Source: Anaerolineae bacterium (GTDB lineage: Bacteria > Chloroflexota > JAHJIN01). From it: a DNA stretch of 64,000 nucleotides. The notes under the pieces are model-generated. The model saw only the letters and a program-made list of their open reading frames with translations. It ran no database searches and was not told the DNA's origin. Below are positions 608 to 62,805 of the stretch, piece by piece; the stretch's first letter is position 1; every line of letters starts with the position of its first letter. The position numbers were made by a program, and so were the translations under genes. The stretch is taken from positions 13,622 through 77,621 of the forward strand of contig DAOTYG010000324.1 in NCBI GenBank assembly GCA_034435155.1, given 5' to 3'.

Positions 608-1999
608 CTACAGGCGCACGGAGACGCCAAAGATGTCCGGCGGCAGATAGATATTCGTAGCCTCGATGCGCTCGATGAACTTGGGGCGGATGCCGGTGGG
701 TTGCAATCGTCCGATCACCCGGCCGTCCTCAATGCCGGTCTGCTGGAAGCGAAAGAGGTCTTGCAGCACGATGACATCGCCTTCCATGCCCTGGACCTCG
801 GTTACGCTCACCACCTTGCGCGACCCATCACGGAACCGTTCCTCGTGGACGATCAGGTCAATAGCCCGGGAGACCTGTTCGCGGATGGCACGCACCGGCA
901 GGTCATAGCCGGCCATCAGCACCATGGTCTCCAACCGGGCCAGGGTGTCGCGGGGGCTGTTGGAGTGCAGGGTGGTCATGCTGCCGTCATGGCCGGTATT
1001 CATGGCTTGCAGCATGTCCAGGGCCTCTGGCCCCCGGCACTCGCCGACGATGATGCGGTCAGGGCGCATCCGCAGGCTGTTGATCACCAGGTCTCGGATG
1101 GTCACCTCGCCCTTGCCCTCGATGTTGGGGGGGCGGGATTCCAGGGTGACCACGTGTCTCTGGCGGAGTTGCAGTTCGGCGGCGTTCTCGATGGTGATGA
1201 TGCGCTCATCGCCGGGTATAAAGGAGGACAGGATGTTGAGCAGGGTGGTCTTGCCGGAACCACCGCCGCCGGAGACCACGATGTTGAGCCTGGCGATAAC
1301 GCAGGCTTTCAGGAACTCCACCAGCTCGGGCGTCAAGGTGCCGAAGCGGATCAGGTCCTCGATGGTGAGGGGGATCTTGGCGAACTTGCGGATGGTGATC
1401 ACCGGCCCCACCAGGGACAGGGGGGGGATAATGGCGTTGACGCGCGAACCGTCGGGCAGCCGGGCGTCCACGTAGGGCTGCGACTCGTCGCAACGGCGGC
1501 CCAGGGGCGAGACGATGCGGTCAATGATGCGCATCACGTGCTCGTCATTCTCAAAGGTGATATCGGTCTTGTAGACCCGACCTTTCTGCTCGATGTAGAC
1601 CTTGCGGGGGCCGTTGACCATGATCTCGGTGATGGTCTCGTCCTTGAGGAGCGGCTCGATCGGTCCCAGCCCCAGGATCTCGGCCACGATCTGTTCAAAG
1701 AGCCGATACCGTTCGGTGCGGCTGAGGGTGAGGTTCTCCTCTTCCAGGATGGCATCGAATAGCTCCTGGATGGTTTGTCGCACTTTTTCGGTCTGGGACA
1801 GGTCCATAGTCGGGTCCAGTTCTGAGATGAGCCGACTCTGGACCCGGGCTTTCAGGTCAACATAGGTATCCCGGGCCGGGGCCAGGACCGGGCGTTTGAA
1901 GGCCAGACCAGTCCCTCCACTTCCACTGCTGCCGCTGGCCGGTGGCGGGGTCGCACCAGCGGGCGGTTTGACGCTCTCGATGCGTTTTAGAAGTGACAT
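608..1999 (-). CDS. cpaF: CpaF/TadA type II/IV secretion ATPase of Tad (Flp) pilus
   Basis: 463 aa; Walker A VVSGGGGSGKTTLLN, conserved ESRPPNIEG, GECRG, HDGSMTTLHSN motifs of CpaF/VirB11-type ATPases; ATG with AAGGAG RBS. Confidence 0.9.
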   Translation of the reverse strand: MSLLKRIESVKPPAGATPPPASGSSGSGGTGLAFKRPVLAPARDTYVDLKARVQSRLISELDPTMDLSQTEKVRQTIQELFDAILEEENLTLSRTERYRLFEQIVAEILGLGPIEPLLKDETITEIMVNGPRKVYIEQKGRVYKTDITFENDEHVMRIIDRIVSPLGRRCDESQPYVDARLPDGSRVNAIIPPLSLVGPVITIRKFAKIPLTIEDLIRFGTLTPELVEFLKACVIARLNIVVSGGGGSGKTTLLNILSSFIPGDERIITIENAAELQLRQRHVVTLESRPPNIEGKGEVTIRDLVINSLRMRPDRIIVGECRGPEALDMLQAMNTGHDGSMTTLHSNSPRDTLARLETMVLMAGYDLPVRAIREQVSRAIDLIVHEERFRDGSRKVVSVTEVQGMEGDVIVLQDLFRFQQTGIEDGRVIGRLQPTGIRPKFIERIEATNIYLPPDIFGVSVRL

Positions 2000-4653: not shown

Positions 4654-7600
4654 TTATGGCGTGTAGGACCTCGTGATCAGGGGCAGATAGACACTGAATC
4701 CACCCTGTACTGTCACCACGAAGGGGCCAAAGGTGTTATTCGTATAGCTCCTCTCCGGGATAGTCGGATAGCGATCCGGGTTGACCTGGGCGTAGAGCGT
4801 GTATGTGCCGGTGTTAGTAAAAATATAGGTGAACTGGACGGTCTGGTACGCGCCGGGGGCCAGGCCATATTGCACAGCCGAGCAGCCGACGTTACTGTAT
4901 TCGCCGGCACCGGGGGCATGGGCCGGGTTCACATACAGATCATAGTAGAACGAATAGCAACAGGACGTGGTCACCGGTCCATCGCCCAGGTTGGCCAGGG
5001 TTATGCGAACGGTGGTCGGCTGGTCTTTGGCCGGCTGCGCCGGTACAGTGCTGATCCCGGTCACTGCCAGATCTGGCCGGCGCAGGATATTGGTGTCAGT
5101 GGCAGTATTGTTAGTCTCGTTTTCTGGCTCCGCACAGCCGATAACGACCTGTACGGTCAGGTCCGCCGGCCAGTTCTCTACCAACTGGGCTGGCGCCGGG
5201 TATTCCAGGACCAGAGTCGCCTCGCCGGTGCCACCCACCGGCACCGCTGACACCTCCCGGCGATATTTATGGTTGCCGAGGGCTGTCCAACCGCCGCTTT
5301 TATAGGTGGCGCTGGGATGCAGCGTGGCCGTGATGGCCACCCCGGTGGCGATCTTGTTGCCCTCATTGGCGTACCGGATCGTGTATGTCAGGGTCTGGCA
5401 CAAGGTGGTCGCCGTAACCCCATCGGAAAAATAGATAAAGCGCAGGTCCGGGGCCAGGGTGATCACCTCATTAATGTCCGTGGCGGTGTTGTTGTCCAGG
5501 TTGGTCTCGCCGGTGGCGCGGATGGTCACGGTGTTGGTGATGGGGCCGGGGCTGGCCGTCTCGTTGACCTGCACGGTGATGGTCACGGTGGCGTGCTGGC
5601 CGGCCGGCAGGTCGTTCACGGTGCAGGTGTAGGTCTGGCCGCTCACCAGGTGCCAGCCTGCGCTGCCCTGGAAGGTGGTCTGGGCCGGGATGGTCTCGGT
5701 GAGGACGATGTGCCGGGCCTGGCCGGAGCCGGCGTTGGTGTAGGTGATGGTGTAGGTGAGGATGTCGCCGGCCGAGACGTAGGTCGTGCCGTCGGTCTTG
5801 GTCACTGCCAGGTCTGGGGGCAGGGAGATGATGGGATCCTCGTCCCAGGCGACGTTATCGCCGGGGGCGATGTCCGGCCCGTGGACCTCGTCATAGCTGA
5901 TCTCGACCCGGTTCAGCAGCGTGCCCTCCGCGTCATCGTTGACGCGCAGGGTGAACGTCGTGCTCCCATGACCGCCGTTGCCCGGCAAGATGTCCACTGT
6001 CCGGCTGTAGCGATTGCCGCCCTGGGGTGTCCAGCCGGTACCGATGTACTGGGCCGGCCCGGTAAAGACCTCCGTGAGCACGACGTTGGCGGCGTCTGAG
6101 CGGCCGACGTTGGTGTAAGTGAGCGTATATGTGACGATCTGGCCGGGATGGACCTGATTCAGGCCATTTGACTTGGTTACCTGCAAGTCTACCCAGCAGA
6201 GGAGGGTAGTGTCGTGGGTGGCGTTGTTGTCCTCGCGGGGGTCAGGGCCGTGCGAGCCGTCGTCCCCGATGTAGGCCCAGTTGATCAGCCTATCTGGCGC
6301 GGTAGCAGTGTCGGTGAGGACCCGCACGACAAAGTGAATGGTGTTACTGGCCCCGGGTCCCAGGCTATCAATCGTGGTGGTGTAGGTGCGGCCGTCGGTG
6401 GAGTTGAAAGGCCGGTCGCTGGAGACAAAGATGGTATGAGCGGGGATCACATCGGTGATCACGATGTTCGTCGCTGTCTCATCGCCGCTATTGGCATAAT
6501 AAAGGGTATAGGTGACGAGCTGCCCCAGGGAGACCTCGAGCCGGTCGTCGCTCTTGCTGATACCCAGCTCTGGCGGCGGTGGAGGTGGTGGTCCCCAGGT
6601 GTAATCGAAAACGCCAGAGCCGGCCGTACCGGCGTGCAGCGTCTGCGTCACATAGTCGTCAATGGCCAGGGAATAGACGTACCAGTTCTTCAGTTGGGCG
6701 TTCAATGGATACCACTTGTCTGGGGGAGTGTAACGTTCATCGCCATAGAACAGCACCCCCCCGCCCCCGGTCCCGGCCAGGACGATGGTGGGGGTGATGG
6801 GGTTGACCACCAGGGCATAGACCGGGTTGCCGCCGGCGGACCAGTCTTGCTGCCAGGTATCACTCAAGACTTTGCGGATGTAGATGCCGCCGCCGCTCTC
6901 GCCGACGCCGGCAAAGACCGTGTGCTCGATGTCCACGGCCAGGGCGTTGATGTAGAGAGCCTCGCCGCTCAGGCCGGGGTTGAAGGCCGTCCAGGTCTCG
7001 CCAGCGTCCGTGCTGCGGTAGATGCCATTGTGGTGGGTCCCGGCATAGACGATGGTGGGGGTAAGGGGGTCAATGGCCAGGGCGCGCACGGTATAGTCCG
7101 CGCCGCTGGGCTTGATCCGCTTGTAGACCCAAAGGGCGCCACGGTTGGTGGTCTTGTAGACGCCGCTGCCCGTCCCGGCATAGACGATGGTGGGCGATAC
7201 TGGATCAATGACCAGGGCGTACACATCCAGGGCCTGGGTGGTGGTCAGGCCATTGCTGGCCAGGGTCCAGGTGACGGCATTGGTGGTGGTGTAGATGCCG
7301 TCGTTGGTGCCGGCATAGACCGGGAAGCCGCTGGGGTGGGTAACCGCCAGGGCCCGCACCTCCCGGTCGCCGATGGCCCCGCTGCGGCGTTCCCAGCTTG
7401 CGCCGCCGTCCTGGCTGCGGTATAGGCCGCCGCCCTCGGTGCCGGCATAGACCCGCCAGTCGTAGGCCGGGTTCACGGCGATGGCCCGGACGATGTGGGC
7501 ACTGAGCAGCTTCTCGGGTGGGGTGCCGTTGGCGGTGCTCCAGCTCAGTCCCGCATCCGTAGTGCGGTAGACGCCCCGGCCGGCGGTGCCGGCGTACAGG

Positions 7601-8574: not shown

Positions 8575-9035
8575 TCCTCCTCGTATATTTGCTCGCGCGG
8601 GGTCTGCCCCTTTTGCTCGCGCGGGGTCTGCGACCCCGCGCCCGGCGGCTTCTGTGCTCGCGCGGGGTCTGCGACCCCGCGCCCGGCGGCGGGTGACACA
8701 CCCGCCGCGAGCTGTGCTCGCGCGGGGTCTGCGACCCCGCGCCCGGCGGCTTCTGTGCTCACGCGGGGTCTGCGACCCAAGTGCTCACGCGGGGTCTGCG
8801 ACCCCGCGCCCGGCGGCTTCTGTGCTCACGCGGGGTCTGCGACCCCGCGCCCGGCGGCATCTTGTGCTCACGCGGGGTCTGCGACCCCGCGCCCGGCGGC
8901 TTCTGTGCTCACGCGGGGTCTGCGACCCCACACCCAGCGGCGGGTGACACACCCGCCGCGAGCACAGTTGTTCCCGCCGCGAGCACAGTTGTTCCTGTGC
9001 CATGTGGGGTCTGCGACCCCGCGCCCGGTGGCGGG
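8575..9035. repeat. Tandem array (~9 copies, ~41-bp period) of hairpin repeat TGCTC[GA]CGCGGGGTCTGCGACCCCGCGCCCGGCGGC (10-bp perfect stem GCGCGGGGTC/GACCCCGCGC)
   Basis: Directly visible periodic repeats between the surface-protein start and the TadG-PQQ stop; inter-repeat segments are short (6-25 nt) and recurrent, not unique. Confidence 0.9.
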
Positions 9036-9263
9036 TGACACTCCCTACCGTCGCCGCTGCGAGCACAGTTGTTTGAACCGGCGCGAGAGCAGTTGGCGCG
9101 GCGTCCCCATATAAAGTCGTCGGCGCTGGAACCCAGGCCGACGACTCGCTATGCCTTCTTGGAACCCGAAAACCGGCGCGCTCCACCCTGCCGCAGGTTT
9201 TTGAACCTGGGGCAGGATTAAAACAAGGTGCGACGCACGCTCGTGCGTCGCACCTGGATGCGG

Positions 9264-11210
9264 CTACCAAAGCAGCTTGCTCTCCTGGTTGGCCGGGTTC
9301 AGGTCCACGCCATAGACCAGGTTGTCGCAGCCGCCGAAGTAGACCCAGTTGTTAGCCGCTACCTCCATGTTGGAGTGCAGGTCGGCGTCCAACTGATATT
9401 GCTGATCCGACTGACCGCCGACTTTGGAGATGGCCTCAAAGTAGCCACGCCCCTGGTCGCCATAGACGCTGCCGGAGTGGGTCTGGCAGCCAAAATAGAC
9501 ATAGTCGGTGGCCAGGGCCGGCGAGCAGTGCCAGGCGGCCCGGTTTGGATAGGTGGTATCTGGTTGCTTCATCCCCAGGGTGATGGACCACACCAGGCTG
9601 GCCGAGGTGCCCTGGTCCAACAGCTTGTAGGCGGTGGCCTTTTCGCTGCTAAAGTAGACGTAGCGATTACCGCCCACCTCTTCTATCGCCGGGGTGCAGG
9701 AGAGCGCGTAGTTGGCCGCGTAGCTCCACTTCACCGCCCCCGTCTCTTTGTTGACGGCATATAGCTTGCCGTCCCGGCAGCCGATGTACAGGGTGTCCCC
9801 ATAGATGACCGGCGAGCCATCGAATCCCTCAAAGTTGTTGCTGGAGCTGATCTTGCTGCTCCACTTGACCTGACCGTTGGAATAGAAGGCATAGACCATA
9901 CCGTACGTGGCGCTGCCGCCGCTGCCGCAGCCGTCTTTGGGCTGGCTGCAGGCCATGTAGATGATGTCCGAACGACCACCCAGGCCGTGGTTGATGGCGT
10001 CCTGGTCTGTGCGAGTTTCTACCCAGGGGTTGACGTTGGTCCCGCCGAAGAGCTGGACCCGGCCGCTGGACCAGGACCCGCCAGAGACCGGCGTGCCGTC
10101 ATCCACGTCAAAGGCATACAGGTAACCGCCCCGGGAACCCACATAGACCACTTCGTTGTCACTGGAAAAGGCCGGCCGGGAGTCCACGTAGCTCTCGCCA
10201 TAGACGCCCTTGTGATAGCCCGGGGCCTGGATGTTCTTGGACCAGATCCGCTGCCCGGTGCTGCCGTCCAGGCAGTAAAGGTATCCCTTGCTGGAGGTGC
10301 CCCCATCGCCGGGGACGGTGATGAAATAGATCAGGGTTTTGCCGTTCCGGTTCAGCACCCGCACCTGCCCCTGGACCATGGGCCAGCGGTTGTTTTCGCC
10401 GGTGCTGGTGCTTTCCTCCGTCCACCCGTAGGTCGTGCCGGTCCCGTCTGTGGCCGGGCGGAACCGCCACCAGGCGTGGGTTTTCTTGCTGCCGTCCTGT
10501 TTGCCCAGGGCGTTCAGGCAGTAAAGGTAGCCGTCACGGCAGCCCACGTAGACCACCTCCCGGTTGCCGGCATACGGGTCCACGTAGTAGAACGGCGTGG
10601 CGTGCACGTCACCGCCGTAGGTGCGGAAGGTCCAGGTGACCTTGAAGATGCCCCGATAGCCGGCGGCGGCGGCGGTCACATCCACGTTATGAAATCCCAG
10701 GACACCGGCAAAGAACATCGAGGTGTTGCGCCGGGCATCCACCCGCACGCACATCTCCTTGGCGATGTCCTGGGCCTGAGAGATGGCATCCTGGTAAAAG
10801 ACCGTCACCGAGACCTCATCCCCGCCGATGGTGGTCGTATACCTGTAGTTCGTGCCAGAGCCGCCGTCCCAGTCGGGGTCAAAATCCGTGGTGGAATAGG
10901 ACTGTGGCACCGAGCCGGAATCCAACCCGATGTTGCGGGCGTAGCAGCCCAGGGCCTCCCGGGTGGCGTTCTTGACGGCTTCCCACTTTTCGGCGGCGGT
11001 GTCCACCGGGGCCGGGGTGCGGCGCGCGCCGGCCATCGTCGCCGCGTCCACGATGCCCTGCAGGTCCCGCTTGGTGTAGTACATATAGCCCACATCGGTG
11101 ACCAGCACCAGGAACCCGATCAGGGCCACGATGAGAAAGGCAAAGAGCACCACGTTCTGCCCGGCCTCTCGCTGCGATTGCTTGCACGTCCTCTGTTGTG
11201 GCTTGTTCAT
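9264..11210 (-). CDS. TadG/TadE-like pseudopilin N-terminal domain fused to PQQ-repeat beta-propeller (start revised to ATG 11208-11210)
   Basis: MNKPQQ...VVLFAFLIVALIGFLVLVTDVGYMYYTKRDLQG is a TadE/TadG-type N-terminus; downstream repeated PQQ-like blades (VVYVGCRDGYLYCL, VVYVGSRGGYLYAFD, LYIGCRDGKLYAVNKETGAVKW); AAGGAGGG RBS before the internal ATG. Confidence 0.75.
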   Translation of the reverse strand: MNKPQQRTCKQSQREAGQNVVLFAFLIVALIGFLVLVTDVGYMYYTKRDLQGIVDAATMAGARRTPAPVDTAAEKWEAVKNATREALGCYARNIGLDSGSVPQSYSTTDFDPDWDGGSGTNYRYTTTIGGDEVSVTVFYQDAISQAQDIAKEMCVRVDARRNTSMFFAGVLGFHNVDVTAAAAGYRGIFKVTWTFRTYGGDVHATPFYYVDPYAGNREVVYVGCRDGYLYCLNALGKQDGSKKTHAWWRFRPATDGTGTTYGWTEESTSTGENNRWPMVQGQVRVLNRNGKTLIYFITVPGDGGTSSKGYLYCLDGSTGQRIWSKNIQAPGYHKGVYGESYVDSRPAFSSDNEVVYVGSRGGYLYAFDVDDGTPVSGGSWSSGRVQLFGGTNVNPWVETRTDQDAINHGLGGRSDIIYMACSQPKDGCGSGGSATYGMVYAFYSNGQVKWSSKISSSNNFEGFDGSPVIYGDTLYIGCRDGKLYAVNKETGAVKWSYAANYALSCTPAIEEVGGNRYVYFSSEKATAYKLLDQGTSASLVWSITLGMKQPDTTYPNRAAWHCSPALATDYVYFGCQTHSGSVYGDQGRGYFEAISKVGGQSDQQYQLDADLHSNMEVAANNWVYFGGCDNLVYGVDLNPANQESKLLW

Positions 11211-11435
11211 CTCGATTCCCTCCTTCCGAAAATAACCCCCTCGCTCGCGGCGGTGACCACGTCTACGACCCCCGGCCCAGGCCGGACTGGGTGGCACAAG
11301 CCGTAGGGTATGCCAGCCGCCGTGCGAAGCACGCGGGGTCGCAGACCCCACGCGAGCACACCGGCGTATTTTCGTAAAATCGTGGGGGCCTTTCCAGGCT
11401 GCCCGCAGGCTAGAAAGCCTGCGCTACGCTGCGAC

Positions 11436-44202: not shown

Positions 44203-44231
44203 ACCGCTGACGGCCGACGAAGGAGTGCCCT

Positions 44232-44819: not shown

Positions 44820-46460
44820 CTACTGCCCCCGAAAGGCCCGCGAGAGGGCCACCTGCTGGCGATAGCGCGCCACCTGCCGTTCCACTTCGGCCTCATCCCA
44901 ACCCAGCAGCCGGGCCATCCGGTTCGCCACGGCCCGGGCGATGCCCAATCCCTGCTCTGCCTCCTCGTAAAAGACCTGCGTCCGGCGGATCAGTACGTCG
45001 TCCAGGGTCAACGCCATCTCGTGTTGCACGGCATACGGCACCTCGGCCCAGAGGTACGGCCGGCCGGGGACGAGCCGCTCACCCAGCGAGGCCTCGGCCT
45101 GGACAAAGGCCAGGACGGTGTCTGCGCCGGGGCCGTAGAAGCGCGCCAGGTGCGCCAGGACATCGCGCTCCACCTGGGGGTAACGCCCGGTCAGGTCGGC
45201 CAGCTCTGCCGCCGGGTCCCGCGTGGCGCCGGAGAAGGGCAGCCGCGCCGTCTGGCAACCCCGCTTCGCCCGGATGCCGTGCTCGCGGGCGAGCTTCTGC
45301 ACGGCCCGGTCCACCGTCTCCTCCGCCATCTGGCGATAGGTGGTGAGCTTGCCCCCGGCGATGGTGAGCAGCCCGGCGTCGCTCTCCACGAGCCGGTGGG
45401 CGCGGGAGACCTGGTAGGCCGATTTGCCTTCCTGCCGCACCAGGGGCCGCACCCCGGCGTAGGTGCTGAGCACGTCGTCGCGCGTCAGATGGACGCCAAA
45501 GACCTCGTTGGCCGCCGCCAATAGCTCGTCCACTTCTTCTGCCGTAGCACAGACCTGATCCAGATCACCTTCGTGCTGGGGGTCTGTCGTGCCCAGGATG
45601 CAGGTGTTGTCCCATTCCAGGGCAAAGCGGGCGCGGTCGCGGCCGGTGAAGGTGACGGCGGCCCGGATGTCCAGCCTGGTGCGGGGGATCACGACGTGGC
45701 TGCCGCGACTGGGGACCATCAGCGGTGGCGCCGTCGGGTCATCCATCTGCCGGATGCGGTCCGACCAGACGCCGGTGGCGTTGACGATGACCCGGGCGCG
45801 GACGGTGAATCGCTCCCCGGCGATGCGGTCCCACACCTCAGCCCCGGCGACCCGGCCGTGCTCCTTCACCAGGCCCAGCACCTCCGCGTGGTTGGCGACG
45901 AGCGCGCCGTGCTCGTGGGCCGACTGGACGACCGCCAGGGTGAGCCGGGCGTCATTGGCCCGGCAATCGTAATAGACTGCGCCCCCCACCAGGTCTGTCG
46001 GGCGGATCATCGGCTCGGCGGCAACCACCTGCTCTGGGCGCAACAGGCGATGGCGCTGATACATCCTGAACCGGGCCAGGATGTCGTAGAGCCACAGCCC
46101 CAGCCGGGCCACCAGCAGGCCGCGTTTGGCGCGCCGGTAGACCGGCGCGGTGAACGGCGTGGGCCAGACCAGGCGCGGGGCCAGCCGCCAGAGCCGGTCG
46201 CGCTCGCGGCATGACTCGGCCACCACACCGAACTGCCCCTGGGCCACGTAGCGCAGCCCGCCATGCACCATGCGCGAGGTCTTGGAGCTGGTGCCGGAGG
46301 CAAAGTCGCCCTTCTCCACCAGCGCCACGGTCAGGCCCCGGAGAGCCGCGTCCCGGGCCACCCCGGCCCCCGTGATCCCCCCGCCGATGACGAGCACGTC
46401 GAATACCTCACGCTTCATGCGCTCGATGTTCGCGTTTCTTGTAACTGGTGAGAACTCCAT
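44820..46460 (-). CDS. glpD: FAD-dependent glycerol-3-phosphate dehydrogenase
   Basis: FAD-binding DVLVIGGGITGAGVARDAALRG, GlpD-family conservation throughout, C-terminal helical domain; ATG at 46460 after GGAGG. Confidence 0.85.
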   Translation of the reverse strand: MEFSPVTRNANIERMKREVFDVLVIGGGITGAGVARDAALRGLTVALVEKGDFASGTSSKTSRMVHGGLRYVAQGQFGVVAESCRERDRLWRLAPRLVWPTPFTAPVYRRAKRGLLVARLGLWLYDILARFRMYQRHRLLRPEQVVAAEPMIRPTDLVGGAVYYDCRANDARLTLAVVQSAHEHGALVANHAEVLGLVKEHGRVAGAEVWDRIAGERFTVRARVIVNATGVWSDRIRQMDDPTAPPLMVPSRGSHVVIPRTRLDIRAAVTFTGRDRARFALEWDNTCILGTTDPQHEGDLDQVCATAEEVDELLAAANEVFGVHLTRDDVLSTYAGVRPLVRQEGKSAYQVSRAHRLVESDAGLLTIAGGKLTTYRQMAEETVDRAVQKLAREHGIRAKRGCQTARLPFSGATRDPAAELADLTGRYPQVERDVLAHLARFYGPGADTVLAFVQAEASLGERLVPGRPYLWAEVPYAVQHEMALTLDDVLIRRTQVFYEEAEQGLGIARAVANRMARLLGWDEAEVERQVARYRQQVALSRAFRGQ

Positions 46461-46472
46461 CACACCTCCATT

Positions 46473-46555
46473 TCGGAATGCGGAATGCGGATTTCGGAAT
46501 GCGGAATGCGGAATGGGGGGCCATACGCCGCATTCCGCATTCTATATTCTACATT
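46473..46555. repeat. (CGGAATG)x6 heptamer tract plus inverted GCATTCCGCATTC arm forming a hairpin
   Basis: Between AGPS-like gene stop and glpD start. Confidence 0.9.
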
Positions 46556-46561
46556 CCTAAT

Positions 46562-48259
46562 TCATAAATCCAGGGCCAATATGCCGCCGGGGTTCATGAT
46601 GTTGTGCGGGTCGAAGTGCCGCTTGAGGGCGCGGAACACCTCAAGCTGGTTCGTGCCGATCTGACCCTCCAGCCAGGGGGCGGTGCTCCGGCCGATGCCG
46701 TGATGGTGGCTCATGGTGGCCCCGGTCGCCTGGATCGCGTCCAGGATGCTGGCCTGGTAGGCCAGGTACTCGTCCAGGCCCTCCATGCGGGCGATGAAGA
46801 TGAAGTACAGGTTCGCGCCCTGGGGGTAAAAGTGCGAGGCGTGGGTCATGCAGATGGTGCGGGGCCGGGCGTGGCAGACCTGGCGCACGCCGGCCCAGAC
46901 CCGGTGCAAATTCGCCCAGCTCACGCCACATTCCAGCGTATCCAATATGATCCCGAAATCGCCCAGGTCTTCGCGCATGTACGGGTCACGGAAGCGGCCG
47001 TGTTCCCAGCGTTTGGTCACATAGCCGGTGGTGTAGAGCGCGCCGTACCGTTTGCAGATGGCCTTGATCTTGCGTTTCACCAGCCGTCCATAGTCCGCGT
47101 CGCCGTCGGTGTGGCCCAGGAGCAGGCAGCGCTCCATCGGCCGGTAGCCCAGCCGGGTGAGGAGCGTGTCCGCCAGGGGCACGTCCTCCACGCCGTAGAG
47201 CTTGAAGGCCACGTCAGTCTCCTCCGGGTCCGACAGCCGGAACACCGACGGGAAGCCGAACTCCCCCTGCATGACCTCACGGCACGCCTCCACTGCTGAC
47301 TCCCAGTCTCGAAAGACAAAGCTGAACCGCTGGCGGGCCTCCGGCCGGTAGCGATATACCTTGAGCGTGACCTCTACCAGCACGCCGAAGGTCCCCTCAG
47401 AGCCGAGCATGATTTGATCGATATCCGGCCCCGTGGCCTTGGCCGGCACGTCCACCGTCACGATGTCGCCCACCGGGGTGACGTATTTCTGGGACAGGAT
47501 CAGGTGCTCGATCTTGCCGTAGTAGGTGGAGTTCTGCCCGGCTCCCCGCGTGACCACCCAGCCCCCCACCGACGAATACTCGAACGACTGGGGAAAGTGG
47601 CCGCAGGTGTAGCGGTGCGGCGCGCCGAAGCGTTCCGGGGCCTGGTTCAACGCCTCCTCCAGGGCCGGGCCATAGATGCCCGGCTCCACGGTCACGGTCT
47701 GGTTCACCGGATCCAGGCGCAGGATGCGGCGCATGTGGGTGCTCATCTTCAACGAGATGCCGCCGCGCACGCACTCTGCGCCCCGGGTTACGCCGGAGCC
47801 GGCCCCAAAAGGCACGATGGGGATGCGCCGCTCGTCGCAAAAGCGCACCAGTTGGCGCACGTCGTCGGCATGGCGGGGATGGACCACGGCATCTGGCGGG
47901 TTCTCGATGACCCCGGCCCGCAGACGCAGCACGTCCACCATCGTCTTGCCGTAGCAGACGGCCGCGCGCGACCCATCGTCCGTGGATACGTTCTCCGGCC
48001 CCACGATGGCGGCCAGCCCGGCCAGCGTCTCCGCCGACAGGCGGCACGGTTGCTCTACACGCACCGGCGTCTCACCGGTGTTCGTGCGAACCCGGAAGTC
48101 GTCATCGGTCATGCCGAAGACCTGCTTCATGTGCTCGTACAGCCGCCGGTTGGGGTGCTTGAACTCCGTGGGGCTGCCCCATTTGAGGAGCGCGCGGTAT
48201 GAGCCAGGTGGCGGAGGGGATTCGGTCCAGGGGGGAGTGAAACGGTCTCGTTTGGGCAT
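46562..48259 (-). CDS. FAD-linked oxidase, alkyldihydroxyacetonephosphate synthase-like (start at internal ATG 48257-48259)
   Basis: FAD-binding PCMH-type domain (PIVPFGAGSGVTRGA) and AGPS-like C-terminal part (HHHGIGRS); N-terminal 45 aa also exist as a duplicated fragment at 49354..49476. Confidence 0.85.
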   Translation of the reverse strand: MPKRDRFTPPWTESPPPPGSYRALLKWGSPTEFKHPNRRLYEHMKQVFGMTDDDFRVRTNTGETPVRVEQPCRLSAETLAGLAAIVGPENVSTDDGSRAAVCYGKTMVDVLRLRAGVIENPPDAVVHPRHADDVRQLVRFCDERRIPIVPFGAGSGVTRGAECVRGGISLKMSTHMRRILRLDPVNQTVTVEPGIYGPALEEALNQAPERFGAPHRYTCGHFPQSFEYSSVGGWVVTRGAGQNSTYYGKIEHLILSQKYVTPVGDIVTVDVPAKATGPDIDQIMLGSEGTFGVLVEVTLKVYRYRPEARQRFSFVFRDWESAVEACREVMQGEFGFPSVFRLSDPEETDVAFKLYGVEDVPLADTLLTRLGYRPMERCLLLGHTDGDADYGRLVKRKIKAICKRYGALYTTGYVTKRWEHGRFRDPYMREDLGDFGIILDTLECGVSWANLHRVWAGVRQVCHARPRTICMTHASHFYPQGANLYFIFIARMEGLDEYLAYQASILDAIQATGATMSHHHGIGRSTAPWLEGQIGTNQLEVFRALKRHFDPHNIMNPGGILALDL

Positions 48260-48289
48260 GTTGTTCTCTCTCGTAAATAGCGCTCCGGC

Positions 48290-48440
48290 CACTGCTCGCG
48301 GCGGGTCTGCCAGGCCCACCCAGTCCGGCCTGGGCCGGGGGCCTGACTGGTTGACCCGCCGCCGGCGCGGGGTGGCACACCCCGCGCGAGCATGGTCGCG
48401 CAGCATATTTTCGTTCTACGGGGTGCGCCCCGCGCGTGTG
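48290..48440. repeat. Inverted-orientation copies of the composite hairpin REP seen at 62466-62805
   Basis: Reverse complement of 62528-62610 matches 48299-48385 with few mismatches. Confidence 0.8.
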
Positions 48441-48461
48441 AGTCTCCTCCTCAAATCGCGG

Positions 48462-48490
48462 TTGACACACAGCCTACAGCGTGCTACAAT
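48462..48490 (+). promoter_or_regulatory. Near-consensus promoter TTGACA-17-TACAAT firing rightwards into the 3' region of, and antisense to, the DUF3800 gene
   Basis: -35 at 48462-48467, -10 at 48485-48490; no plus-strand protein-like ORF downstream. Confidence 0.5.
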
Positions 48491-48714
48491 ATATCCGAAC
48501 CGGGTGACCCGGGACCTCTCGGCACTCTGCCGGGAGCTGAACCGGGTTGTGCGGCCCCAGGGCCGGCCCCGGCGAAAAAACGGACCACTGGCTGCTGTGC
48601 ACGGCAGCCAGGCGGCCAACGTTTCCCCTCGGCGAACAAGTGCCCGGCTGTAGGGCGCGAGCCAGGTGGTTGAATGTCCCGTCAGGGACCACAACCTGGA
48701 TAGCCGAGGCGGTT

Positions 48715-49338
48715 TTATTTGGTGGCCTCATAGTGATAGACCCATAAGTGCCTGCCCAGACCCCGCAGGTAATCTGTACCTCCATTCTCGCGCGTTACCA
48801 TTGCCCCGGCCAGCATGTCCGCCACCTGCAAGCCATCCCAACGGCGCGCTGGCTCCCCGCGTACCTTGGGAGTCTGCTTCAACCCACGGGCTAACAGCAC
48901 CGGGGAAGTGACCACCCGCAGGTTGCGTATCAACGGACTGTTTTTCACCTCACTGTCTACAAGAATTCGTTTGACTGTCAGCAAATCCAGGGGAGCGCGA
49001 GCCAGCAATTGCGCCAGGAAGAGACCGTAAAAAGACGGGGTGTGCATCCTGGCAAACTCCACGGATAAGCGGCGTTTGTCCACCATCAGCAAAGCCCCCT
49101 CCCAGGCAAAGTGTGGTAGGGTGGCGAAGAACGCGGTTCGCACCACCTGAGAGTTGCGAGCGAAATGGAACTCGAACGCCTGCGGCAACCCCAGTTGTGC
49201 TCTCAGCCGGATGAGTCCTTGTCGCAACCCGGCATAGTCTGTGCTGGATACCAGGCTCAGAACGAGGTGAGACGAAGATCCGAGAGCAAATTTGAAACCA
49301 GTGTCACCTGACCAGTCAACAAAGCCATAGGCTCGCAC
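48715..49338 (-). CDS. DUF3800-like protein (GTG start)
   Basis: N-terminus MRAYGFVDWSGDTG resembles the DUF3800 (YxDESG) start; lower local GC; 15 nt downstream of the AGPS N-terminal fragment. Confidence 0.55.
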   Translation of the reverse strand: MRAYGFVDWSGDTGFKFALGSSSHLVLSLVSSTDYAGLRQGLIRLRAQLGLPQAFEFHFARNSQVVRTAFFATLPHFAWEGALLMVDKRRLSVEFARMHTPSFYGLFLAQLLARAPLDLLTVKRILVDSEVKNSPLIRNLRVVTSPVLLARGLKQTPKVRGEPARRWDGLQVADMLAGAMVTRENGGTDYLRGLGRHLWVYHYEATK

Positions 49339-49353
49339 TTGCTTCCCTCACTC

Positions 49354-49476
49354 CTACAGCCGGCGGTTGGGGTGCTTGAACTCCGTGGGGCTGCCCCATT
49401 TGAGGAGCGCGCGGTACGAGCCAGGTGGCGGGGGAGACTCGGTCCAGGGAGGGGTGAAACGGTCTTTTTCGGCCAT
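49354..49476 (-). pseudogene. Remnant of a second AGPS-like oxidase: 40-codon N-terminal fragment ending in TAG
   Basis: Translates to MAEKDRFTPPWTESPPPPGSYRALLKWGSPTEFKHPNRRL*, ~90% identical to residues 1-40 of the intact gene at 48259. Confidence 0.65.
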
Positions 49477-49621
49477 GCCTTCGTTCGCTCCATCAAGGCT
49501 ATCCATGTACGGCACGTATTATATCCGATCCTGCCCGGCCTTGCCAGAGTACCCGGCCCGATGTATACTCTGGTTGCTCGTAGCTGACCAGTTTCCAGCA
49601 ACTAGCTTCCAGTTGGAGGTG

Positions 49622-50458
49622 ATGATGGACCTGACGATGCGCCTGGAGCAGATGGCCCGGCCAGCCGGCGATATTCGCCTGCTGTCCCTGGCGGACACCC
49701 ACGCTCTGGCCCGCGAGTGCGGCACATCGGTGCGTGAGGTGGAGATGGCGGCGTTGACGATGCGTATCCTGCCGGCCCGCTATGTCCGCAATCTGGGCAC
49801 GGTGGGCTGGGACGGCCAACTGCGCCTGTTGCAGGCCACGGTAGCAGTGGTGGGCTGTGGGGGGCTGGGTGGCTGGATTATCGAGGGGCTGGCCCGGATG
49901 GGCGTGGGGCACCTGATCCTGGTGGATTGCGATGCCTTCGAGGAGAACAACCTGAACCGGCAACTTCTGTGCACGGAGGAGACGCTGGGCCGGAGCAAGG
50001 CCCTGGCAGCCCGGGACCGGGTGGCCCTGGTGAACAGCGCGGTACAGGTGACGGCCCATCCGGTCCTGGCAACGGCGGAAAACCTGCCGACTCTGCTGGC
50101 CGGCGCCGAGATCGTGGCGGATGCCCTGGATACCATCCCCCTGCGCCTGACGCTCCAGGAAGCGTCGGCGGCGCTGGGCATCCCCATGGTGCATGGGGCC
50201 ATCGCCGGGTACGTGGGGCAGGTCACCACGGTGTTCCCCGGCGACACGGGCCTGCGGGCCATCTATGGCGCCGGGGCCGTGCCGGAGCGCGGCATCGAGA
50301 GCCGGTGGGGCAACCCGGCTGCCACTCCCATGATGGTGGCCGCCTGGCAGGTGCAGGAGGTCATCAAGTTCCTGACGGGACGCGGGGAGTTGCTGCGCCA
50401 TCGCTTGCTCTACCTGGACGCGGAATCCGGCCAAGTGGAGGTCTTTGCCCTGGCGTGA
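49622..50458 (+). CDS. ThiF/MoeB/HesA-family E1-like adenylyltransferase with ~60-aa N-terminal extension
   Basis: Rossmann motif VAVVGCGGLGGWIIEGLARMGVGHLILVDCD; GGAGGTG RBS before ATG 49622. Confidence 0.8.
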   Translation: MMDLTMRLEQMARPAGDIRLLSLADTHALARECGTSVREVEMAALTMRILPARYVRNLGTVGWDGQLRLLQATVAVVGCGGLGGWIIEGLARMGVGHLILVDCDAFEENNLNRQLLCTEETLGRSKALAARDRVALVNSAVQVTAHPVLATAENLPTLLAGAEIVADALDTIPLRLTLQEASAALGIPMVHGAIAGYVGQVTTVFPGDTGLRAIYGAGAVPERGIESRWGNPAATPMMVAAWQVQEVIKFLTGRGELLRHRLLYLDAESGQVEVFALA

Positions 50459-62465: not shown

Positions 62466-62805
62466 CCCGCAAGTCAAAGATTCCTGCTCGCGCGGGGTCT
62501 GCGACCCCGCGCCGGCGGCTATCTTGTGCTCGCGCAGGGTGTGCCACCCCGCGCTGGTGGGCGGCGGGTCACCCAGTCAGGCCTGGGCCTGGCAGACCCG
62601 CCGCGAGCGAGGGTCTTATGCTCGCGCGGGGTCTGCGACCCCGCGCTGGTGAGTGGCGGGTCACCCAGTCAGGCCTGGGCCTGGCAGACCCGCCGCGAGC
62701 GAGGGGCACACCCTCTTATGCTCGCGCGGGGTCTGCGACCCCGCGCTGGTGAGTGGCGGGTCACCCAGTCAGGCCTGGGCCTGGCAGACCCGCCGCGAGC
62801 AGTGG
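62466..62805. repeat. Tandem array (3.5 copies, ~95-bp composite unit) of the same GCGCGGGGTCTGCGACCCCGCGC hairpin plus a second GGCGGGTCACCCAGTCAGGCCTGGGCCTGGCAGACCCGCC hairpin
   Basis: Near-identical 95-bp units between darA and the CBS gene. Confidence 0.9.

Follow-up and report, generated by a model that had tools for sequence, protein, structure and literature searches.

The 64,000-nt stretch of contig DAOTYG010000324.1 analysed here (the window), from an Anaerolineae bacterium of the Chloroflexota, carries an insertion of a ~0.9-kb cassette in the 5′ end of a single-copy gene coding for an AGPS-like FAD-linked oxidase. The cassette consists of a promoter-less gene for a DUF3800 protein and a convergent ~150-nt small RNA (sRNA) gene with its own strong sigma-70 promoter. 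The oxidase gene has survived the insertion, as the downstream copy of a short direct repeat keeps it intact. As the best explanation overall, to which we assign a probability of about one half, we propose that the cassette was inserted by one-sided recombination and that the DUF3800 protein and the sRNA form a protein–RNA module.

Occupied and empty alleles of the oxidase locus

The target of the insertion is the oxidase gene at 46562–48259 (minus strand, 565 aa, PF01565 and PF02913), the start of which is found twice. Positions 48120–48260 and 49337–49477 form a direct repeat of 141 nt with 87% identity and a blastn core of 127 nt with 90.6% identity. This bears out an earlier interpretation made from the DNA letters alone (the sequence-only reading), which had described a twofold oxidase start of ~90% identity with an upstream copy of 40 codons ending in TAG; this copy runs from an ATG at 49476 to the TAG at 49354–49356. 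As also recognized there, the DUF3800 gene (48715–49338, minus strand, 207 aa, GTG start) begins 15 nt past this stop codon. Weaker homology continues past the TAG as far as the GTG at 49338, so that ~46 codons plus the ribosome-binding site (RBS) are duplicated, the upstream limit of the repeat taking in the RBS to about position −15. At the junction the fragment reads CTG TAG GAG TGA GGG AAG CAA GTG and the intact gene CTG TAC GAG CAC ATG AAG CAG GTC, and the degraded codons 41–46 of the fragment now provide stop codons and a Shine–Dalgarno sequence.

The sequence-only reading had taken the upstream copy for the remnant of a second AGPS-like oxidase, a view that does not hold when related loci (designated by L numbers) are considered. 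The L097, L098 and L099 loci have empty sites, in which the order ThiF–oxidase–GlpD is kept with one oxidase gene and no DUF3800 gene; their oxidase proteins are 93% (L097) and 87% (L098 and L099) identical to that of the window. In all three, a conserved promoter block, CTCTGGCAA..GGATCGGATATAATA, adjoins the ThiF gene and leads directly to the single oxidase gene. The same block is present in the window as the native oxidase promoter CTGGCA-18-TATAAT (49547–49518, minus strand, 10/12 positions) and now precedes the fragment and the DUF3800 gene. A sequence search found no second oxidase and no second DUF3800 sequence elsewhere in the window. Since the empty-site relatives have one oxidase behind the same promoter and the window contains no other oxidase, the fragment (DR1, 49337–49492, minus strand, with RBS, ATG, 40 codons and the degraded codons 41–46) is the displaced original 5′ end of the gene. 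The second copy (DR2, 48120–48275, minus strand), consisting of the RBS and the first 46 codons of the intact oxidase, is still joined to the gene body. The ThiF-family gene (49625–50458, plus strand) is divergent from the three minus-strand genes, which are the DUF3800 gene, the oxidase gene and a GlpD/DAO-like gene (44820–46463).

Occupied sites are found in two close relatives. L088 shares with the window 95–97% identity as well as its arrangement, with a 40-aa fragment open reading frame (ORF) called at 4863–4985, a blastn repeat of 138 nt that ends at the DUF3800 start codon, and the gene order of the window plus DZR, TetR and other genes, none coding for a reverse transcriptase (RT). In L019, where the cassette occupies the same position, the fragment and the first ~101 DUF3800 codons are missing. 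The comparative genomics put forward in the sequence-only reading to trace a deletion history has revealed an insertion scar and not the deletion of a paralog, with L097–L099 empty and L088 and L019 occupied.

The left edge of the cassette is the DUF3800 start codon, because host homology reaches right up to it, and the right edge coincides with the −35 box of the sRNA promoter or is found just past it. The L027 and L003 modules, which are 93% identical, diverge immediately 5′ of TTGACT, and in L014, L015 and L101 5 nt separate the −35 box from the ATG of the gene that follows. The cassette ends have no terminal inverted repeats. Ahead of the DUF3800 gene, the leader ORF stops at TAG and TGA, followed by a GAGG Shine–Dalgarno sequence and the GTG, and the gene is most plausibly expressed from the native oxidase promoter with the fragment serving as leader ORF. 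The leader peptide and the upstream promoter of the sequence-only reading are thus retained, while the "decayed paralog" to which that promoter was ascribed is replaced by the oxidase gene itself. Similar arrangements occur elsewhere: in L014 a GlpD-like fragment ORF is followed by TGA, 6 nt and the ATG of DUF3800, in L101 and L015 the stop codon of FtsH lies 6 nt from the ATG, in L030 a 21-codon leader ends in TAA 10 nt before the ATG, and in a second L014 module the DUF3800 GTG overlaps the TGA of the GlpD-like gene. In L009 and L089, promoter-like sequences are present upstream of DUF3800, and the capture of host promoters is common, not universal. On the minus strand between the RNA gene and the oxidase ATG the promoter scan called no promoter, and a TATATT overlapping the −10 region of the sRNA promoter has no −35 box; the default assumption is that the intact oxidase gene is transcribed by read-through from the native promoter. 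An in-frame fusion between DUF3800 and the host fragment had been considered as a mechanistic signature; it is true of the window and L014 and not of L030, and was dropped. The second DUF3800 gene of L014 (8380–9071) is of the canonical DESGD type and frameshifted, and is accompanied by a DUF3800-IX RNA above the Rfam threshold (9003–9071, minus strand, 38.6 bits), so that the GlpD-like gene of this locus has DUF3800 cassettes at both ends.

The DUF3800 protein and its convergent RNA

The 207-aa protein scores 18.9 bits (E=0.0027) against Pfam PF12686, aligning with profile positions 3–146 of 149. The HMM check suggested with the initial DUF3800 assignment therefore falls below the 21-bit cut-off, while homologues, motifs and fold uphold the assignment. 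A large protein collection returned 39 relatives, nearly all from Chloroflexi/Anaerolineae metagenome bins and typically exactly 207 aa long, and precomputed PF12686 matches exist for 11 of the 33 near-full-length homologues (45–98% identity). In the family alignment D8, S10, G11, E56, D87, D128 and Q171 are invariant, and the C-terminal Q-x-x-D motif reads Q171-V-A-D174 here. The N-terminal motif is D8-W-S-G-D12 where typical DUF3800 proteins have D-E-S-G-D, the Glu being replaced by Trp in 31/34 family members. The protein has the RNase H2-like (RNase HII-like) fold expected of DUF3800 proteins, and more distant structural neighbours of this fold include the Argonaute PIWI and Cas9/IscB RuvC domains. 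Membership in the DUF3800 family is supported despite the sub-threshold Pfam score because of the 39 homologues, some of them with PF12686 matches, the D-x-S-G-D and Q-x-x-D motifs and the RNase H2-like fold. Type 2 RNases H (RNase HII/HIII/H2A) differ from it in several respects: identity is 10–14%, the DE motif is DW here, the invariant E56 lies elsewhere and the DUF3800 protein has a dedicated RNA partner gene. A "catalytic rearrangement" has been noted (PMC10910872), with which the DW motif and E56 may be compared. With regard to carriage by phages, only one distant relative was found among 2.9 million viral contigs. A homologue in L104 (P0013, 3501–4229) has a 29-residue insertion and a scrambled C-terminal motif and is probably degenerating; near it, a small PDDEXK_3 gene (645–980) lies between two Fer4/heterodisulfide-reductase-like genes.

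The convergent gene codes for a structured RNA (48575–48722, plus strand). An Rfam scan of 47800–50000 returned DUF3800-IX (RF02968) at 48623–48717 on the plus strand with 31.6 bits (E=3.6e-4), a match that covers all 67 model positions with a 27-nt insertion and stays below the gathering score of 36.8. Homology among related loci extends from the DUF3800 start codon to ~140 nt beyond the stop codon and breaks off abruptly at the equivalent of window position 48575. In the alignment of 23 such regions (A3), a hairpin at the 5′ end is accompanied by a three-way core that consists of the long-range helix P1, of P2 and of P3 with an inner hairpin; a U-run follows P1. Both sides have changed in 20 of the 30 pairs, and P1, P2 and P3 are each kept by compensatory changes. 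The alignment has 97.7% of its cells paired, a level reached by none of 500 shuffles (0/500), and slid controls remain at ≤49%. The minimum free energy fold of the window sRNA is the consensus structure (z = −2.9). Since U–G pairs are frequent, the RNA is assigned to the plus strand of the window. P1 and the U-run form a predicted terminator that overlaps the TAA stop codon of DUF3800. The RNA is intergenic and convergent with DUF3800 and shares only the stop codon with the ORF, so that the ~200-nt transcript antisense to the DUF3800 3′ end expected from the sequence-only reading is not what the locus encodes; an independent plus-strand sRNA gene, which that reading had also considered, is corroborated by the RF02968 match and the covariation.

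The near-consensus promoter noted earlier at 48462 withstands scrutiny as well. TTGACA-17-TACAAT (48462–48490, plus strand) conforms at 11/12 positions and has a TG extension in a promoter scan that returned three promoter-like sites versus 0.3 expected, and a canonical TTGACA-17/18-TAnAAT promoter lies directly 5′ of the conserved RNA start AACAAAAAAACGG in nearly all of 22 related loci. A GC-rich insert of ~75 nt (48497–48574, plus strand) separates the promoter from the conserved 5′ end of the RNA. It is specific to the lineage of the window, L088 and L019, is single-copy in the window and would extend the 5′ end of the sRNA. No direct-repeat family is present within the sRNA region. DUF3800-IX matches above the threshold (37–64 bits), convergent and abutting the stop codon, are found in L005, L021, L030, L038, L047, L049, L051, L061 and the second L014 module, and the sister RNAs of the window sRNA score 28.3–30.5 bits against RF02968. 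The window sRNA is a divergent DUF3800-IX variant in a Chloroflexi subfamily that is missed by the Rfam threshold.

Eleven DUF3800-associated RNA motifs were described by Weinberg et al. in 2017, as unrelated structures presumed to share a single function for which the authors saw no hypothesis (PMC5737381), and no later functional work on these RNAs was found in the literature. The window RNA shares with DUF3800-IX the P1–P2–P3 core, the GAA junction, the terminal U-run and the position beside a DUF3800 gene. It differs by a 27-nt expansion in P3 (GGUUGAAUG, a hairpin and CCAUAAC), an extra 5′ hairpin and the 75-nt insert between promoter and RNA in its lineage. A discrete cassette, empty sites and gene-end repeats are not mentioned in the portion of the 2017 report that we could draw on (PMC5737381).

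Two short words are shared between the sRNA and the displaced fragment, a 12-mer (CCACCTGGCTCG; CGAGCCAGGTGG, in P3; 48658–48669 and 49417–49428) and an 11-mer that lies in the P2 loop and recurs at the DR1/DUF3800 junction (CCGGCTGTAGG; 48642–48652 and 49351–49361). RNA-guided targeting by complementarity was rejected, as L088 has neither word intact and seven other loci contain nothing equivalent; the two words were judged to be due to chance. When sRNAs were compared with the flanking repeats of their own and of other loci, no other locus rose above the cross-locus background of 7–10 nt.

Gene-end repeats around DUF3800 genes and their origin

The duplicated oxidase start belongs to a wider pattern. 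A survey of the 46 DUF3800 loci with enough flanking sequence for direct repeats of ≥40 bp that bracket the gene, with 36 shifted windows in the same loci as controls, found such repeats in 11/46 loci versus 0/36 controls; the window, L088 and L026 are additional to these 11. For the most part the repeats are ends of host genes, and the gene differs from locus to locus. For instance, the repeat is the 5′ end of a GlpD-like gene in L014, the 5′ end of a secreted-protein gene in L030, the 3′ end of atpA in L036, the 3′ end of a MoxR gene, in three copies, in L049, and the 3′ end of an upstream co-oriented (small) gene in L003, L051 and L026. L021 is an exception in that an internal segment of a pta-like gene is repeated, and L072 has a repeat of 50 bp. 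The repeats are 50–210 bp long, the cassette-bracketing pairs are 82–96% identical, and one intact copy of the host gene remains in every end-of-gene case. A 3′-end duplication, that of icd, is also known from prophage e14 and phage 21. In the nested arrays of L049 (500–3735) and L030 (3690–6460), copies of one host-gene end separate the DUF3800–sRNA cassette from other nuclease cargo, Uma2/PF05685 in L049 and HNH plus a 146-aa ORF in L030, and this mode of entry may also be open to further small nuclease genes. L001 is a tandem array with repeat copies between the units. The L089–L096 loci have no repeat, nor do L101 and L015, in which a cassette occupies the GlpD site of L014.

The 2,696-bp metagenome contig L027 has a 165-bp repeat at its ends (1–165 and 2532–2696, 99.4% identical) within an RlaP-like nucleotidyltransferase gene; an AbiEii gene, a truncated DUF3800 gene with its sRNA and a gene for an RRM protein lie between them. 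These ends may represent a genuine long repeat or a circle, or may be due to the assembly. A scan of the whole window for local direct repeats found tandem CpaF paralogs only, and such repeats are thus not a general habit of this genome. The paralogs are represented by a 607-nt repeat (1–598 and 1396–2002, 86% identical) formed by the 5′ parts of tandem CpaF/TadA-like secretion ATPase genes, one of which is whole (608–1999, minus strand), while the other crosses the window edge.

We consider it somewhat probable that the duplication did not arise from a staggered cut of the transposase type and that the cassette instead arrived joined to an allelic oxidase 5′ end, by one-sided "anchor" recombination. 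The incoming DNA would have comprised the cassette and a homologous oxidase 5′ end. The homologous end would have recombined with the resident oxidase gene and the other end would have been joined illegitimately at codon 46, either by homology-facilitated illegitimate recombination (HFIR) or by one-sided repair of a double-strand break. Subsequently, the two repeat copies would have exchanged sequence by gene conversion. One-sided homing in phage T4 gives illegitimate junctions where microhomology occurs, and free-standing nuclease genes there are often promoter-less cassettes (PMC2988022), while an HFIR anchor model and displaced orphan gene ends have been described elsewhere (PMC5361080). 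The Rhs and type VI secretion system (T6SS) effector–immunity arrays of the latter study resemble the present loci in that an incoming gene end replaces the resident end and leaves a displaced fragment, and in their fragment arrays, as in L049, L030 and L001. They differ in that the cargo here is a ~0.9-kb cassette without an integrase and in that both 5′ and 3′ gene ends are used (PMC5361080).

Several observations bear on this mechanism. Pooled over pairs, the differences between repeat copies comprise 111 synonymous and 116 nonsynonymous changes (49% synonymous), with a skew in single pairs of 10:2 for atpA, 11:4 for pta and 14:7 for MoxR. The synonymous excess over the ~40–45% expected from neutral decay suggests that the copies were already different functional alleles when joined. 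Where the repeat is a 5′ end (three cases), it starts at −15, −5 and about +13, right by the RBS or start codon, as would fit a donor in which the gene directly followed the cassette. A 7-site variant that is common to the two repeat copies of L088, and is found neither in the window nor in L019, points to gene conversion. L088 and L019 are 99.5% identical overall, and 15/49 of their differences fall within 273 nt beside the cassette (oxidase nt 28–300; L088 5924–6196); seven of the 15 sites are those common to the two repeat copies of L088, and the rest match window-like alleles. The junction region is recombinationally active.

Possible roles of the protein–RNA pair and other features of the locus

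As to what the cassette does, we tentatively suggest, at less confidence than we attach to its one-sided entry, a selfish or defence-type module in which the RNase H-like nuclease would be bound, and restrained or licensed, by an abundant sRNA. The nuclease would be made at a low level through coupling to the host gene and the RNA from its strong own promoter, with a restraint logic as in type III toxin–antitoxin systems or in the pairing of a retron's multicopy single-stranded DNA (msDNA) with its effector. In favour of such a module are the strong and conserved promoter of the RNA, as opposed to the parasitic expression of the protein, and the convergence of the two genes with overlapping 3′ ends. 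In at least five independent lineages (L019; L016, L018 and L020; L003, L028 and L032; L027; L026), the protein gene is 5′-truncated or internally deleted and the RNA with its promoter is intact, while no locus among those examined has an intact protein gene without the RNA. Modules of 93–97% identity sit in unrelated flanks, which indicates movement between contexts, and neighbours at other loci include BrxC, AbiEii and a PDC-M05 MNT/HEPN pair.

Type III toxin–antitoxin systems such as ToxIN couple a protein nuclease to an RNA that is expressed at a high level; their RNA genes persist as orphans after the protein gene has decayed, and the systems are accessory and located near defence genes. 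The DUF3800 modules are similar in the putative nuclease–RNA pairing, in an RNA that outlives the protein gene and in being accessory, scattered and near defence genes. They differ in having a single, multi-helix RNA that is convergent and downstream, in contrast to tandem repeats encoded upstream on the same strand, and in the lack of processing repeats. The type I/III toxin–antitoxin-like arrangement proposed in the sequence-only reading accordingly fails by the formal definitions of both types, while the looser logic of an RNA that restrains a protein may still apply. Type VII retrons combine an RT and a non-coding RNA with a DUF3800 protein or domain as the predicted nuclease component (PMC7736814). 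They thus also tie a DUF3800 nuclease-like protein to a structured non-coding nucleic acid, which in both cases plausibly holds an effector in check. The RT gene with an msr/msd RNA that marks a retron is missing here: no RT lies within or close to the cassette, the window neighbours of which are ThiF on one side and the oxidase, then the DAO/GlpD-like gene on the other; there is also no PADLOC match, and the DUF3800 proteins of retrons lack the Q of the QxxD motif that the window protein retains.

A number of points weigh against parts of this account. Catalysis by the protein is uncertain, as the canonical DE motif is DW in this subfamily, PADLOC and NCBIfam give no match for it, and in the window the cassette is flanked by metabolic and not by defence genes. 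The invariant loops and the multi-helix core of the RNA would also be compatible with a role as cofactor, as scaffold or as guide in place of inhibition. Its retention beside truncated protein genes may instead reflect an insertion mechanism that truncates at the 5′ end, and the retention pattern may be subject to detection bias, since the loci were found by protein motifs. Regarding the origin of the repeat, the argument that the copies were born diverged is marginal, with 49% synonymous changes against roughly 40–45% under neutral decay. In a three-taxon comparison the branch of the window's fragment is long and that of the intact copy short, which fits an old duplication of identical copies. 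Finally, the cassette is 98.7–99.3% conserved in comparison with 95–97% for the flanks, with some flank windows equally high; the excess is modest, and a recent transfer, as a cassette far more conserved than its flanks would suggest, was not relied on.

The main rival of a restrained module is an RNA-assisted homing nuclease, which we regard as unlikely. In this case, the DUF3800 protein and the sRNA would nick or cut a conserved gene in cassette-free genomes ~75–210 bp from the cassette, and repair would copy the cassette from the donor; where only the target gene is homologous, end-joining would leave a gene-end duplication. The location of cassettes at the ends of conserved genes that are preserved, the empty sites, the enrichment of repeats around the cassettes, the recombination tract that abuts the cassette in the comparison of L088 with L019, and the HNH and Uma2 cargos bracketed elsewhere by copies of one host-gene end agree indirectly with homing. 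Yet modules of 60–70% identity occupy many different targets, unlike site-specific homing nucleases, and no consistent complementarity of the sRNA to repeats or junctions is seen across loci. Many copies are 5′-truncated on the arm-distal side, as expected from aborted repair synthesis, but the truncated L026 and L027 modules are in two further contexts, to which their own protein could not have delivered them unless the truncation took place during or after their arrival. Free-standing homing nucleases are encoded without a promoter, cleave at some distance and yield illegitimate one-sided products, and the T4-like cassettes seg and mob are similarly wedged at conserved genes, use the host promoter, spare the gene, co-convert their flanks and form illegitimate junctions from one-sided homology (PMC2988022). 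They are unlike the present cassette in their folds (GIY-YIG, HNH, LAGLIDADG or PD-(D/E)XK), and the latter carries an RNA gene, has many targets and was found on viral contigs only as the one distant relative. While the Argonaute PIWI and Cas9/IscB RuvC domains are among the more distant structural neighbours, RNase HII is not among the folds known from homing nucleases, and the catalytic Glu of the DE motif has become Trp.

A more far-reaching variant, which we hold to be more doubtful than homing itself, is that DUF3800 proteins and their dedicated sRNAs (11 orphan motif classes) constitute an unrecognized mobile element. A nuclease licensed, scaffolded or targeted by its RNA would then drive its own insertion at host-gene ends, capturing the host promoter and ribosomes and sparing the host gene by duplicating 50–210 bp. 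Interest in the locus would be high only if the cassette proved to be such a driver of its own insertion. If only the conservative reading holds, it is a clear example of a small accessory cassette that enters a housekeeping gene without destroying it. While the pairing of DUF3800 proteins with RNAs was already known, novel aspects appear to be the exact layout of the cassette, the existence of alleles with and without it, the recurrent duplication of gene ends, the tract of recombination and a decay in which the RNA is kept. Together, the locus and its relatives give an anatomy to an RNA class orphaned since 2017, as well as testable models in the form of an RNA-restrained nuclease or an RNA-assisted homing element.

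A Campbell-type mechanism, in which a small circle with the DUF3800 gene, the sRNA gene and one gene-end arm integrates by a single crossover, excises via the repeats and moves between related genomes, is improbable. One circle would explain all layouts (5′ end, 3′ end, co-oriented and convergent), the L001 tandem arrays with repeats between units, the exchange between repeats and the 165-bp, 99.4% identical end repeat of L027. It leaves the first capture of each new arm unexplained, no circular junction was observed, no recombinase is encoded, and related cassettes are present at the same GlpD site without a repeat (L101 and L015).

Transposition with a very long target-site duplication, in which cuts 75–210 bp apart would give identical copies that then diverge, is less probable again. 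The repeats always bracket the cassette directly, and the long fragment branch and short intact-copy branch of the window, together with a pooled synonymous fraction only modestly above neutral decay, would be accommodated. Against this, no cassette-bracketing pair exceeds 96% identity (the 99.4% pair of L027 encloses a larger composite segment and could be due to the assembly), repeat lengths range between 50 and 210 bp and no terminal inverted repeats or conserved ends are present. In 3/3 5′-end cases the repeat has its edge close to the RBS or start codon, several pairs are strongly skewed towards synonymous changes and repeat-free cassettes exist. The terminal inverted repeats, short fixed target duplication and transposase that define insertion sequences and DNA transposons are not found.

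The least probable alternative combines a decayed second oxidase paralog with a cis-antisense RNA, also raised in the sequence-only reading, that pairs with the DUF3800 3′ end in the manner of a type I toxin–antitoxin system: the genes are convergent with no evident terminator on the DUF3800 strand before the RNA gene, so that a read-through mRNA would be complementary to the whole sRNA, but empty-site relatives have one oxidase behind the same promoter and the window has no second one, the annotated overlap with the mRNA is confined to the stop codon and terminator, the helices of this multi-helix DUF3800-IX class RNA are kept by compensatory changes that pure antisense pairing would not need, and the protein is a soluble 207-aa protein with a nuclease-like alpha/beta fold and not a small membrane toxin.

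Further features accompany the locus. In L088 (9915–10476) and L019 (~10648–11215), a ~560-bp insert codes for a four-helix protein of the PF05635 "23S rRNA-intervening sequence" family. At its ends the insert has 30-nt inverted repeats (L088 9920–9949 and 10466–10495) and not direct repeats, and window positions 44218–44221 are its exact empty site, making it a second small accessory insertion with another type of end. The spacer between the oxidase stop codon and the start of the GlpD-like gene (~46470–46545) contains about five GGAATGC heptamers followed by the inverted partner gcattccgcattc, and a long hairpin is possible. The hairpins upstream of the intact oxidase gene, which the sequence-only reading had likened correctly to repetitive extragenic palindromic (REP) sequences, form a 178-bp block (48269–48446) that separates the start codon of the oxidase from the sRNA promoter. 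This block is absent in L088 and L019 and represents a secondary insertion in the lineage of the window only. REP-like arrays consist of GC-rich hairpin units of ~35–40 nt each, and the units of this block recur at three other places in the window (8590–9036, 11269–11358 and 62485–62805).

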